Origin: Bacteroidales bacterium H4
GTDB lineage: Bacteria; Bacillota; Clostridia; Lachnospirales; Lachnospiraceae
Direction: 5' to 3'
DNA: 64,000 nt
Assembly: GCA_963650795.1 (NCBI GenBank)
Contig: CAVJMX010000002.1
Coordinates: 7,150 to 71,149 of the forward strand
Made by a program: the position numbers and the translations under genes. Shown piece by piece: positions 2,979-35,327 of this stretch. Position 1 is the first letter of the stretch; each line of letters begins with the position of its first letter. The notes below the pieces were generated by a model. That model did not search any database. It was not told the origin of the DNA and was given only the letters and a program-made list of their open reading frames with translations.

Positions 2979-3854
2979 ATGGCAAGAGAAAAGACTCCGG
3001 AAGAACAGACAACGGATAACGAGAGAAAACAACTGGCGGAAGAAAAGAAAAAACTGAAAAAAGAGCAGAAGGCGCAGCGGAAAGAAGCAAAACGCCGGGC
3101 AAAAGAGATCGCAAAGCAGGAAGATGCTTTAGACGACGGGAGCGAAGGCAGCAGCCTGCTTACGTTCGGCGCAACCATATTGATCGTAATTCTGTGGATT
3201 GCTGTGATCTGTGCAGTCATCAAGCTGGATATCGGCGGATTCGGAAGCTCCGTGGTGACACCTATTTTAAAGGATGTTCCGGTGCTTAACAGAATCCTTC
3301 CCAGCAATTCCATTACGGAGACTACGGACGGAAGCGCCTACGGTGGCTATACCAGCTTACAGGATGCAGTGGATCAGATCAAGAGTCTGGAGTTACAGTT
3401 AGAGCAGTCACAGACAGCATCCGCAGCCAAGGATGAGGAATTGGATCAGCTGAAAGCCGAAGTCTTACGACTGAAAGAATTTGAGGATCAGCAGGTGGAA
3501 TTCCAGCGTATCCAAAAGGAATTCTATGATGAAGTAGTCTATTCCGACAAGGGACCGGGTGCGGAAGAGTATAAGAAATATTATGAATCCATGGATCCTG
3601 CAACCGCAGAATATATCTATAAGCAGGTAGTAACCCAGCTGCAGGAGAGTAAAGAAGTGCAGGATTATGCAGCGGCATACTCTGCCATGAAGCCGAAGCA
3701 GGCAGCGGCCATTTTTGAAAAGATGACCAACAATCTGGATCTGGCAGCACGGATACTGAAGGTAATGAGTGCGGATGACAGAGGCGCTATTTTAGGCGCT
3801 ATGGATTCTGAAGTGGCAGCAAAGATCACAAAAATTATGGATCCGGAATCTTAA
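2979..3854 (+). CDS. MotE/YlxF-like membrane-anchored flagellar protein (MgtE-N-like C-terminus)
   Basis: One TM helix, coiled coil, YESMDP and YSAMKPKQAAAIF repeats; occupies the ylxF position between fliJ and fliK. Confidence 0.75.
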   Translation: MAREKTPEEQTTDNERKQLAEEKKKLKKEQKAQRKEAKRRAKEIAKQEDALDDGSEGSSLLTFGATILIVILWIAVICAVIKLDIGGFGSSVVTPILKDVPVLNRILPSNSITETTDGSAYGGYTSLQDAVDQIKSLELQLEQSQTASAAKDEELDQLKAEVLRLKEFEDQQVEFQRIQKEFYDEVVYSDKGPGAEEYKKYYESMDPATAEYIYKQVVTQLQESKEVQDYAAAYSAMKPKQAAAIFEKMTNNLDLAARILKVMSADDRGAILGAMDSEVAAKITKIMDPES

Positions 3855-32468: not shown

Positions 32469-33569
32469 ATGGCAATTACCGCATCTATGGTAAAAGAGCT
32501 CCGTGAAATGACCGGCGCTGGTATGATGGATTGTAAGAAGGCTCTGAACGAGACAAATGGAGATATGGACGCAGCTGTTGAGTTCCTGAGAAAGAACGGA
32601 CAGGCTAAAGCTGAGAAGAAGGCAAGCCGTATCGCAGCAGAAGGTGTTGCACGTGCAGCAATCTCCGCAGACGGCAAGACCGCTTGCGTTATCGAAGTTA
32701 ACTCCGAAACCGACTTCGTTGCAAAGAACGAGACCTTTACTTCTTTTGTAGAGGCTGTTAATGCAGCTGCTTTGGCATCCGATTTACAGGGTGGCAAGGA
32801 TGGCGAAGATATCGAAGCACTGTTGGCTGCTCCTTTCGAAGGTGCAACCGTTAAGGAAGCTCTGGTAGAGAAGACCGCTACTATCGGTGAGAAGCTGTCC
32901 ATCCGTCGTTTCGAGAAGGTATCCGGAGATGTAGCAGTATCCTACATTCACGGTGGCGGACGTATCGGTGTTATCGTTGCAGCTAACGGTGCATCCGATG
33001 ACGCAGCAAGAGAAGCACTGACCAACATCGCTATGCAGGTAGCAGCTATGAATCCTACCTACATCAGCAGAAATGATATTTCCGCAGAAGAGCTGGCTAA
33101 GTTACAGGAGATCACTGTTGACGCAGCTCTGAACGATCCTGCATCTCTGCCTAAGCCCATCCTGAACAAGCTGATCGATAAGGCTATGAACAGTTCCGCA
33201 TGGAGCGATGAGGATAAGGCTATCTACGAAGAGAAGAAGAGCAACATGAACTACCTGTTCAACTTCCTGCCCAAGGAAGCAGCAGCTGCTCTGGCTGAGC
33301 TGGCTATGGCTGACAAGGACGCTATCGTATCTGATAAGATCTTCAAGGGTCTGGCAGACGGTCGTGTATCCAAGCAGCTGAAGGAGATCTGCCTGTTAGA
33401 TCAGACCTATGTTAAGGCTGAGGACGGCAAGCAGACCGTAGCTAAGTATTTAGAGAGCGTTAACAAGGCTCTGACCATCGCTAAGGTTGTTCGTTTCGAA
33501 GTTGGCGAAGGCATGGAGAAGAAGAACGAGGACTTCGCAGCAGAAGTTGCCGCTCAGATGAACGCTTAA
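32469..33569 (+). CDS. tsf: Translation elongation factor Ts
   Basis: VKELREMTGAGMMDCKKAL; EVNSETDFVA. Confidence 0.99.
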   Translation: MAITASMVKELREMTGAGMMDCKKALNETNGDMDAAVEFLRKNGQAKAEKKASRIAAEGVARAAISADGKTACVIEVNSETDFVAKNETFTSFVEAVNAAALASDLQGGKDGEDIEALLAAPFEGATVKEALVEKTATIGEKLSIRRFEKVSGDVAVSYIHGGGRIGVIVAANGASDDAAREALTNIAMQVAAMNPTYISRNDISAEELAKLQEITVDAALNDPASLPKPILNKLIDKAMNSSAWSDEDKAIYEEKKSNMNYLFNFLPKEAAAALAELAMADKDAIVSDKIFKGLADGRVSKQLKEICLLDQTYVKAEDGKQTVAKYLESVNKALTIAKVVRFEVGEGMEKKNEDFAAEVAAQMNA

Positions 33570-33587
33570 TTATAACGGATTATGTAG

Positions 33588-33615
33588 AAAAGGCATGCGT
33601 GAGTATGCCTTTTTT
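33588..33615 (+). terminator. Intrinsic, likely bidirectional terminator after tsf
   Basis: AAAAGGCAT-N8-ATGCCTTTTTT. Confidence 0.85.
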
Positions 33616-33706
33616 ATATTGAAAGTTACGAAAGCATAGCCGCGCATAGAAAACAAGAAAGCCTGGGCGTGGACGCTTGAGCACAAATCCCAGGCTTATT
33701 CGATAC

Positions 33707-33902
33707 GCGGGGCGTAATCATCAATAATAGTCAATTAAGCCCCGGTGGTTTACGTTATGCGGGGCGTAATCATCAATAATAAGTCAATTAAGCCCCGGTG
33801 GTTTACGTTATGCGGGGCGTAATCATCAATAATAGTCAATCAAGCCCCGGTAGTCTTACATTACGCGGGGTGTAATCGTCAAATCTTGTGTGTAACGCCC
33901 CG
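33707..33902 (+). repeat. Tandem array A: three 52-53-bp units plus a diverged fourth
   Basis: GCGGGGCGTAATCATCAATAATAGTCAATTAAGCCCCGGTGGTTTACGTTAT; units start at 33707, 33759, 33812, 33865. Confidence 0.95.
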
Positions 33903-33914
33903 TACCTTGGTTTC

Positions 33915-34028
33915 AGGGTACAGAGGAGCTTGCTCCTGTCTCCTGCGCCCACGTTGAGGCGTAAGAAGGGTACAGAGAAGCTTGTCCTGTCTGCTGTGCC
34001 CACGTTGAGGCGAAAGAAAGGGCACAGG
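33915..34028 (+). repeat. Tandem array B: two 52-bp units plus the start of a third
   Basis: AGGGTACAGAG..GCTTG..CCTGTCT.CTG.GCCCACGTTGAGGCG.AAGA; units start at 33915, 33967, 34019. Confidence 0.9.
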
Positions 34029-34229
34029 CGGGCGCTCCACATTTATTGGCAGTTCTCCGCAATGAGCCACGCTATTCATAAGATTGTCAGCAAAAGGCGC
34101 TGCCAATCTTATTTCATATCGCGGCGTTCGCCGCATCACGGCATAAGTAAAGACAGCGATTTGTGCGCAAGCGCCCATCGCTGTCCTCACTATGCCTATG
34201 CGCGGCTCATTGCTCGCGTAACTTTCAAT

Positions 34230-35327
34230 TTATCGATAGAACTCCACAAGGGAATCCAGCTTTGCTGACATATTCATCATCATGGCATCCAACACAGTGA
34301 TGGCGGTCATGCATTCCATGACGACCACAGCTCTGGGGACGATGATGGGATCGTGGCGTCCGCGGATGGTCAGCTCGGTATTTTCTCCGGAGCGGTTCAC
34401 CGTCTGCTGGGGCTGGAAAATCGAAGGGGTCGGTTTTACATAGGCGCGGACAATGACAGGACTTCCGTCGCTCATACCGCCTAAAATACCGCCGGAATGA
34501 TTACTGACTTTCACAACTTTGCCGTTCTCCATGCGGAAAGGATCGTTGTTCTCACTGCCGGTATGGCGGGAAGCTTCGGCACCATCGCCGATCTCCACGG
34601 ATTTCACGGCACCGATGGACATAATGGCTTTCGCCAGGTTGGCATCCAGCTTCTCGAAGACCGGATCGCCGATACCTGCGGGAAGACCCTCCACGAGGCA
34701 TTCCATGCAGCCGCCGACGGAATCACAGACTTCTCTTGCCTGCTGCAGATAAGCACAGGCTTTTTCATCTGCTTCTGCATCCGGCATGGCAGTAATGGTG
34801 GAACGGGCAGTGCTTCGGTCAAATTTTGCAAAATCTATGTCTACGGGACCGATGGAACGGGTGTAGGCGAAGACGGTAATGCCCATCTGCTCTAAGATCT
34901 TCGCGGCAATCGCTCCGGCAGCGACGCGCCCGATAGTCTCACGACCTGAGGAACGTCCGCCACCCCGGTAATCCCGGAAACCGTATTTTGCATCAAAACA
35001 ATAATCCGCATGACCGGGGCGATAGTTCTCGGCAATCTCACTGTAATCGGCAGAGATCTGGGAAGTATTGCGCACCATCAGGGAGATAGGGGTACCGGTG
35101 GTCTTGCCCTCGAAGACGCCGGAGAGAATCTCCACCTGATCGGCTTCCTTGCGCTGGGTGGTGATGGCGCTGGTGCCGGGCTTGCGGCGGTCTAAATATT
35201 TCTGTATATCTTCTTCGGAGAGAGGAAGCCCGGCGGGACAGCCGTCTACGACGACACCTAATGCCTTTCCGTGGGATTCTCCCCAGGTAGTGATCTTGAA
35301 AATGTTACCGAATGATGAACCTGCCAT
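34230..35327 (-). CDS. aroC: Chorismate synthase
   Basis: TWGESHG, RPGHAD, GGRSSGRET, RGRHDP. Confidence 0.98.
   Translation of the reverse strand: MAGSSFGNIFKITTWGESHGKALGVVVDGCPAGLPLSEEDIQKYLDRRKPGTSAITTQRKEADQVEILSGVFEGKTTGTPISLMVRNTSQISADYSEIAENYRPGHADYCFDAKYGFRDYRGGGRSSGRETIGRVAAGAIAAKILEQMGITVFAYTRSIGPVDIDFAKFDRSTARSTITAMPDAEADEKACAYLQQAREVCDSVGGCMECLVEGLPAGIGDPVFEKLDANLAKAIMSIGAVKSVEIGDGAEASRHTGSENNDPFRMENGKVVKVSNHSGGILGGMSDGSPVIVRAYVKPTPSIFQPQQTVNRSGENTELTIRGRHDPIIVPRAVVVMECMTAITVLDAMMMNMSAKLDSLVEFYR

Follow-up and report, generated by a model that had tools for sequence, protein, structure and literature searches.

A non-coding, inverted-repeat-ended element at the aroC stop codon as a likely copy of a modular repeat superfamily in Lachnospiraceae

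Between the terminator of tsf and the stop codon of aroC, the genome labelled Bacteroidales bacterium H4 (placed in the Lachnospiraceae by GTDB) carries 612 bp of DNA, which raises the question as to what this stretch is and how it came to lie there. The element (positions 33618–34229) was examined within a stretch of 64,000 nucleotides of contig CAVJMX010000002.1, to which all positions without a prefix refer and which we call the window. Our preferred reading, to which we assign a probability of about 0.62, is that the 612 bp represent one non-coding copy, ended by inverted repeats, of a multi-copy superfamily found in approximately 16 of 269 species of the genus, and that this copy was likely transposed into the aroC stop codon, at its TA, and mobilised in trans. 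What is new is the superfamily itself: it is clade-limited, modular and similar to miniature inverted-repeat transposable elements (MITEs), its terminus is common to TwoAYGGAY-bearing and Clostridiales-1-like modules, and it has a habit of sitting on stop codons. A literature search, with supplements outside it, returned no published description of this repeat family or of its 12-nt terminus.

A dispersed family and its copy between tsf and aroC

The superfamily can be recognised by its 13-nt terminus. The pattern TAAMTDGRRAGTT occurs 16 times in G000, the genome of the window (2.93 Mb, 185 contigs), and not once in the reversed control; the ends therefore stand far above chance. Fifteen other genomes of the genus contain 18–62 matches each versus 0–5 in the control, and the remaining approximately 250 of the 269 genus genomes are at background. 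DNA of the 612-bp element itself was detected in 4 of 41 sampled relatives, all of the same genus, and the end module, searched as 200 nt, in 17 of the 269 genomes. G000 holds a second full copy of 966 bp with two full inverted end modules (C33:8751–9716) and a truncated partial copy that is fused to the 3′ end of a gene (C73:12947–13042). From six genomes we could assemble a set of 37 complete elements, which measure 46–2053 bp and all share the same terminus. Moreover, three sister copies in a related species can be set against unoccupied sites in G000:

L132/L068, a 943-bp composite, versus C49:13245/13247
L101, a 190-bp element made of two termini and their hairpins, versus C19
L136, an 890-bp composite, versus C25, where G000 has an ordinary terminator hairpin

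The 612-bp element contains three internal open reading frames (ORFs) of 68–126 aa, none of which matches a Pfam family at E < 0.05. A preliminary description of this DNA had proposed a mobile element that is non-autonomous and belongs to no named family. The first part of this proposal is supported by the multiple copies in G000 and its relatives, by the filled and empty sister sites and by the lack of coding content, and the second by the absence of any Rfam match at threshold. The parts of the element and its flanks are as follows:

32469..33569, + strand: tsf, coding for elongation factor Ts (EF-Ts), the left flanking gene (Pfam EF_TS, 193.7 bits)
33582..33619, + strand: intrinsic-terminator hairpin of tsf with T run (arms 33582–33596 and 33605–33619)
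33616..33617, no strand: left flanking TA, the proposed target dinucleotide, from the sequence and the family-wide TAA...TTA flanks
33618..33649, + strand: left terminal inverted repeat, subtype ACGAAAGCA--TAGCC, an inverted match to the right end
33659..33697, + strand: left-end hairpin H1, capped G[CUUG]C and inverted with respect to 34150–34177
33704..33902, no strand: tandem array of four ~53-nt units, each forming a CGGGGC...GCCCCG hairpin (repeat search: 3.3 units of 53 nt at 33707–33882)
33915..34027, no strand: 2.2 tandem 51-nt units with GAGCTTGCTC-capped hairpins, present too in G000:C33 and in G022
34055..34229, − strand: 175-nt structured end module (closing stem and three hairpins), the folded strand reading inward from the terminus
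34196..34229, − strand: right terminal inverted repeat, an inverted match to the left end
34230..34232, − strand: aroC stop codon TAA (TTA on the + strand), which abuts the terminus and contains the right flanking TA (34231–34232)
34230..35327, − strand: aroC, coding for chorismate synthase, the right flanking gene (Pfam Chorismate_synt, 468.7 bits)

The inverted ends at 33618–33649 and 34196–34229 had been noted before, and the sequence, a repeat search and BLAST all return them as first written. They are 32 and 34 nt long and 85% identical over 34 columns (BLAST), and the paired arms comprise 33615–33636/34211–34232 (22 nt, 86%) and 33638–33649/34196–34207 (12 nt, 100%). The subtype ACGAAAGCA--TAGCC is found in 3 of the 39 aligned modules. 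At its left end the element contains H1 only, the remainder of the left module being absent; the stem of this H1 differs in sequence from other H1 copies, with pairing preserved. The internal content of the tsf–aroC element is not conserved between species, and the number of ~53-nt units also varies (five in G022 at the same locus). Related 50-nt units reach 11–12 copies in L095 and L187.

Several observations concern individual copies. The shortest element, a 46-bp sequence at L196:501–546 (G287:C1:520556–520601), consists of two termini plus the halves of the closing stem, and is bordered by TAA...TTA. The truncated module on C73 (C73:12940–12975; L002, approximately 1440–1475) lacks a terminus, and the upstream ORF ends on an in-module TGA (..GAG CAA TGA); in G007, where the terminus is intact, the same gene stops at the junction TAA. 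On C33, at about 10.5–10.9 kb (L001:3016–3121 and 3299–3416, − strand), lie tandem TPP (thiamine pyrophosphate) riboswitch aptamers scoring 48.6 and 58.7 bits, the first of which runs into a masked stretch of N.

To judge by an exact 21-mer of the module, the family occupies 74 loci in species-representative genomes, whose titles name Waltera hominis, W. intestinalis, W. acetigignens, uncultured Acetatifactor and Lachnospiraceae metagenome-assembled genomes; four records are non-Firmicute by title alone (Pelovirga, Geobacteraceae, Deltaproteobacteria). A full 174-nt module with a TAA border also occurs in L131, an isolate bin titled Odoribacter splanchnicus (Bacteroidota), which may reflect either a binning error or a transfer. 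The plasmid collection contained no match to the element, and the phage collection contained three, all in unannotated fecal contigs. In two DNA sequencing runs the end module was approximately 40 times deeper than its flanks (546 vs 13 and 3945 vs 92), these depths being sums over all organisms in the run. Many termini lie less than 250 bases from contig ends and point outwards, which indicates that the repeats break short-read assemblies.

End modules, their fold and Rfam motifs

What makes this family modular is the variety of sequence behind the shared terminus. This may be a module of the window type (GTTACGCGAGCA...), a TwoAYGGAY body (GTTAGTGAAATA...) or other sequence, so that at least three kinds of end module share the 13 nt, and 8 of the 37 complete elements pair two different kinds. 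An A/T-rich module and tandem arrays of hairpins with differing unit number serve as additional building blocks. Other contig ends and intergenic repeats of G000, different in sequence, start with nearly the same 12–13 bases. An apparent A/C asymmetry of the ends (20 of 37) was examined and dismissed, since it is no more than base frequencies predict.

The window-type module has a covarying fold. An alignment of 39 distinct copies with a mean identity of 90% gives a consensus structure of 50 pairs, comprising a 14-bp closing stem and three hairpins. Paired cells amount to 99.1% versus 95.3% in shuffles (none of 500 reaches the observed value) and 27–49% with partners slid, and nine pairs have changed on both sides. 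On the inward-reading strand G-U predominates at five pairs and A-C at none, and the minimum free energy on this strand is −89.6 kcal/mol versus −78.8 kcal/mol on the other, a difference of 10.8 kcal/mol. The G-U pairs and the better energy indicate that the structure belongs to one strand. Since the modules read inward in the folding sense, a gene reading into the element would transcribe the module in that sense.

The first hairpin is capped by G[CUUG]C and is followed in one subtype by a U-rich run. A terminator or 3′-untranslated-region (3′-UTR) role may be envisaged from the modelled fold: read-through from a flanking gene would make the module a structured 3′ UTR, and the first hairpin with its U-rich run is a predicted substitute terminator. 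We propose that insertions between convergent genes would for this reason be nearly harmless. A simple terminator and promoter scan was uninformative (one promoter signal versus 1.4 expected).

Two Rfam motifs bear on the identity of these modules. The module in the window scores 28.9 bits against Clostridiales-1 (RF01699), and other copies score 28.6–36.1 bits, all below the gathering score of 48. The two structures agree in strand, in the closing stem and in a first hairpin capped GCUUGC; they differ in that the central hairpins do not align and the score remains under 48. True Clostridiales-1 is a separate repeat in G000, with at least 17 identical copies (157.2 bits), for example:

G000 C1:15777–15944, true Clostridiales-1
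G000 C3:52661–52828, true Clostridiales-1
G000 C5:5810–5977, true Clostridiales-1

This repeat of approximately 196 bp has the ends TGATGCC...GACATCA and A/T-rich direct repeats of 5–6 bp (TATTA, TAATA, CTTTGA), and looks like a recently active MITE. The Clostridiales-1 motif was found, in multiple copies, in 82 of 151 sampled Lachnospiraceae genera.

The second motif, TwoAYGGAY (RF01731), occurs at 92–106 bits in sister elements with the same 13-nt terminus; in the window, a search of 33300–34500 at E up to 1 found no copy (cut-off 43 bits). TwoAYGGAY is present in 19 of 121 sampled genera, and outside the carrier clade the repeats that contain it have other ends, without a link to the 13-nt terminus. 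A case in point is a repeat of approximately 290 bp in G208, from another genus (L269, L290), which carries TwoAYGGAY between the ends GTGTCAAAACATGC...GCATGTTTTGACAC. Since these ends differ, TwoAYGGAY evidently rides unrelated inverted-repeat elements in other genera. The available part of a study on Pseudomonas describes multi-copy TwoAYGGAY in divergent doublets with flanking tandem repeats and suggests a 'mobile-element-like' expansion, naming there neither ends nor a target (bioRxiv 10.64898/2026.09.22.753630). G000 contains a second repeat, with the terminus AAATAGAAAGTTAGTGAAAT and a TwoAYGGAY match of 105.7 bits, at the following places:

G000 C6, C152 and C175: contig ends
G000 C49, C111, C113, C181 and C82: contig starts
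G000 C45:1000–1164: within the contig

Because it sits at so many contig ends, this repeat breaks the G000 assembly.

Borders, stop codons and the history of the site

Having described the family, we turn to the question as to how its members sit in their hosts. TAA directly precedes 34 of 40 distinct module copies, the far side reading ...CAAT followed across the junction by TTA, and a separate table lists TAA at 21 of 26 termini. On the simplest reading of these sequences, the target would be TA, which is duplicated, and the element would start with A(A/C)T and end with A(T/G)T.

The junction TAA is often a stop codon. For this count, 38 termini had enough flank. At 13 of them the junction TAA is itself the stop codon of an ORF of 90 aa or more; at ten others the ORF stops within 25 nt, at four it stops at a greater distance or within the element, and the remaining eleven have none. 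Four junctions could be compared with an orthologue free of the respective insertion, and in three cases the junction stop is the native stop: the aroC product ends EFYR* in both G000 and G060 (in the latter with 20 nt between the stop and another element), the proteins of L072 and C12 both end LKELL*, and L136 and C25 likewise share the native stop. In the fourth comparison the protein is three residues shorter. If a TA target within a stop codon were hit, the terminal A/T of the element itself would rebuild TAA and leave the protein intact, which would explain why 13 of the 38 termini lie exactly on a stop codon. In our view stop codons are not recognised as such; the enrichment would instead result from selection acting on TA hits in the short spacers between convergent genes.

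The aroC stop appears to have been occupied for some time. The aroC-end terminus is present in eight of nine genus genomes inspected, the exception being G135, where tsf is followed by a helicase gene; it also adjoins aroC in all eight readable contigs of the nine that 20 nt from the end of aroC retrieved from metagenomes. Between these borders the content of the tsf–aroC spacer differs:

G000: 612 bp
G022: as G000, with one more 53-nt unit (five in all) and an additional A/T-rich module of 196 bp
G289: 1.3-kb composite with two TwoAYGGAY copies
G287: twelve 50-nt units plus module
G377: unrelated 614 bp

Since the site is occupied across relatives with almost wholly different contents, we regard the insertion site as old and its interior as changing fast. 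The aroC copy would accordingly be old and common to at least five species, and would have been remodelled by nested or adjacent insertions, by deletions between repeated termini, and by expansion and contraction of tandem units. Nested termini, each again behind TAA, are found within the composites of G022 and G289 at this locus; together with direct repeats of the terminus, their sequences suggest adjacent re-insertion followed by deletion. The tsf terminator is conserved after tsf in G022, G060, G126, G135, G289 and G287, and likely once also served aroC from the opposite side.

Other mobile DNA has reached the same locus. In G287 (L188/L187) an insertion sequence interrupts the tsf terminator, with the 18-nt hairpin GGCATACGCGAGTATGCC on both sides; its transposase matches DDE_Tnp_1 and by eye resembles IS1182/IS5 at the N-terminus. 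A metagenome contig contains a group II intron (L302:1405–2397, − strand; RVT_1 108 bits, GIIM 57 bits) inside a copy of the aroC-site end module, where it directly adjoins a GCGGCG..CGCCGC hairpin. Finally, tsf and aroC are adjacent only in the subclade that carries the element; otherwise they lie on separate contigs or tens of kilobases apart (G117, G046). The adjacency may have arisen via rearrangement at a repeat.

Alternative readings and known systems

Several results weigh against transposition in trans into a TA. The empty sister sites come from other species, with flanks 82–93% alike, and the junctions are not alignable base for base. An empty tsf–aroC site was not encountered in a genus-wide DNA search, the five nearest genomes or a metagenome scan, and no read joint that skips the element appeared in four sequencing runs, none of which contains more than one third of the sampled words of the stretch. 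Of the ancestral empty site that had been postulated, the reconstruction stands and no actual example was found. Joining the aroC stop to the A/T run of the terminator gives the same result for a TA or a TTAT duplication, and the empty site would read ...GCCTTTTT-TA-TCGATAG... whether TA was duplicated or TAA/TTA was borne by the element, two possibilities which the TAA...TTA borders fit equally well. Orthologous sites with different end modules (L202/L214/L227 and the aroC site) are unlike the products of simple cut-and-paste. Evidence from RNA is thin: a single strandless metatranscriptome gives the module a depth of 10–16 versus 25.7 for aroC. Positions 33670–33897 have no RNA cover in X2 and are not counted as evidence.

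The missing mobiliser belongs with these objections. A transposase is absent from the 612-bp element and has not been found together with its ends, in line with the preliminary description; the autonomous element with the same ends for which it recommended a search did not turn up at any terminus inspected in G287 or G289. None of the 37 complete elements contains a transposase, and the longest (2053 bp) codes for a membrane-anchored 414-aa ORF with a sub-threshold DUF3221 match only and no transposase domain. Seventeen 'unpaired' termini, corresponding to the readable 3.8-kb stretches among 20, have a partner within approximately 650 bp or none within 3.5 kb, and only small elements lie inside. 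Enzyme families that produce 2-bp duplications occur inconsistently, and no transposase family tested is common to all carriers: in five carrier genomes, DDE_3 (IS630, PF13358) was found in none, rve (IS30) in three, DDE_Tnp_1 in three, DDE_Tnp_1_2 in two and Y1_Tnp (IS200-like, PF01797) in one. No transposase match was flanked by the termini. G000 and G289 (42 termini, 99% complete) lack all five Pfam families; for G000, where we saw no contig shorter than approximately 2.5 kb, short collapsed insertion sequences could be absent from the assembly. These counts argue against two candidates, a MITE derived from IS630/Tc1-mariner (DDE_3 in none of five) and a REPIN mobilised by a RAYT (Y1 transposase in only one of five).

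That same absence of transposases from G000 and G289 can be cited for a different mechanism, in which the 13-nt termini are sites of a serine or tyrosine site-specific recombinase and the modules are cassettes that are integrated, excised and exchanged. A head-to-head junction of two termini gives a perfect palindrome with TA at its centre (..AACTTTCAATT TA AATTGAAAGTT..), and serine recombinases leave a 2-bp shared core. Orthologous sites that keep their border and hold different end modules and contents, the TAA-preceded termini within composites and the free combination of end types would all be expected from such exchange. Nevertheless, we consider this mechanism a serious yet unlikely rival: no such gene was found beside any element, in a survey that included no search aimed at recombinase families; insertion sites share only TA(A), whereas site-specific systems need a donor-like target; and the same patterns would arise if adjacent re-insertion used the retained TA and the DNA between repeated termini were then deleted. 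The constant occupation of the tsf–aroC site throughout the close relatives and readable metagenome contigs examined, the conserved, covarying and strand-specific fold, and the ordinary terminator at the empty C25 site where a relative has the element could also point to a structured RNA or terminator region that the host maintains because it terminates or stabilises the tsf and aroC transcripts, and not to a mobile element at this locus, the repeats having spread by duplication and gene conversion. We find this explanation hard to support, since the content of the site differs almost wholly between species and only the border is kept, unlike what selection on one RNA would leave; the family is dispersed, polymorphic for filled and empty sites and bordered by TAA...TTA; the element is still preceded by the tsf terminator; and the RNA signal per copy is low in the single RNA run.

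The nature of the duplication requires a separate decision. TTAT does flank the element on both sides (33614–33617 and 34230–34233), as first reported, and could have been produced by a MITE that makes 4-bp duplications. This interpretation now appears improbable. The C33 copy is flanked by ATAA and TTAC, and none of the 37 complete elements shares a flank longer than TA; because these were selected by their TAA...TTA pattern, only the absence of a longer duplication is informative. The dispersed copies that the preliminary description recommended looking for exist in G000 and its relatives, and a 4-bp duplication is not a feature of the family. At tsf–aroC the left flanks of the relatives are TTTTAT, TTTTACAT and GTTTGATGA. 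Given a flanking TA, the terminal T of the element and the T run of the terminator, only one further base must agree, so the TTAT duplication is probably due to chance. An invertible segment (inverton) is suggested by inverted repeats of 32 and 34 nt around approximately 550 bp, and we regard it as very improbable indeed: four runs contained no strand-switching joints (a weak test, as only contigs were available), promoter signals do not exceed expectation, and the family is dispersed with copies of 46 to approximately 2000 bp.

A bolder proposal can be formulated, which we offer tentatively and regard as less likely than not. The 13-nt termini might be the docking ends of a mobile 3′-UTR cassette system in which interchangeable, strand-specific RNA modules (TwoAYGGAY, the Clostridiales-1-like fold and CUUG-capped hairpin arrays) are inserted and swapped at stop-adjacent TA sites, each insertion rebuilding TAA and bringing a terminator. 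In that case, orphan 'sRNA' motifs of gut Clostridia would be the payload of mobile terminators and not free-standing RNA genes. Independently of this proposal, the family provides a genomic context for two long-orphan Rfam motifs, as TwoAYGGAY and a Clostridiales-1-like fold are alternative modules behind one transposon-like terminus. Its position on stop codons without protein shortening makes it a case of a nearly harmless selfish repeat that may supply terminators. Repeats of this family matter in practice for short-read assemblies of gut Lachnospiraceae, which they break, and the presence of cultured carrier species among the named records makes the question of the mobiliser testable.

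How does this family compare with known repeats? The TwoAYGGAY of Pseudomonas, as far as the accessible part of that study describes it, shares the multi-copy spread, and sister elements here carry the motif (10.64898/2026.09.22.753630). The copy in the window differs in that it holds no TwoAYGGAY match. BOX elements of Streptococcus pneumoniae, boxA-(boxB)n-boxC, similarly have variable tandem units between two end modules and predicted stable RNA folds; by description, they lack the 175-nt multi-hairpin end modules and the borders on stop codons seen here. REP/BIME and REPIN-RAYT systems also form inverted pairs of hairpin repeats between convergent genes and near stop codons, whereas the present units are much longer and have true terminal inverted repeats, and a Y1 transposase is encoded by only one of five carriers. 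Correia/NEMIS of Neisseria and RUP of S. pneumoniae are TA-targeting MITEs with a cognate IS630-type transposase or fixed bodies of 100–150 bp. Like them, the present elements are small, non-coding, inverted-repeat-ended and bordered by TA, with many dispersed copies beside genes, where the copies can be co-transcribed and can supply hairpins. Unlike them, they occur in genomes in which DDE_3 was found in none of five, their bodies range from 46 to approximately 2000 bp, and a single terminus is joined to at least three unrelated end modules.

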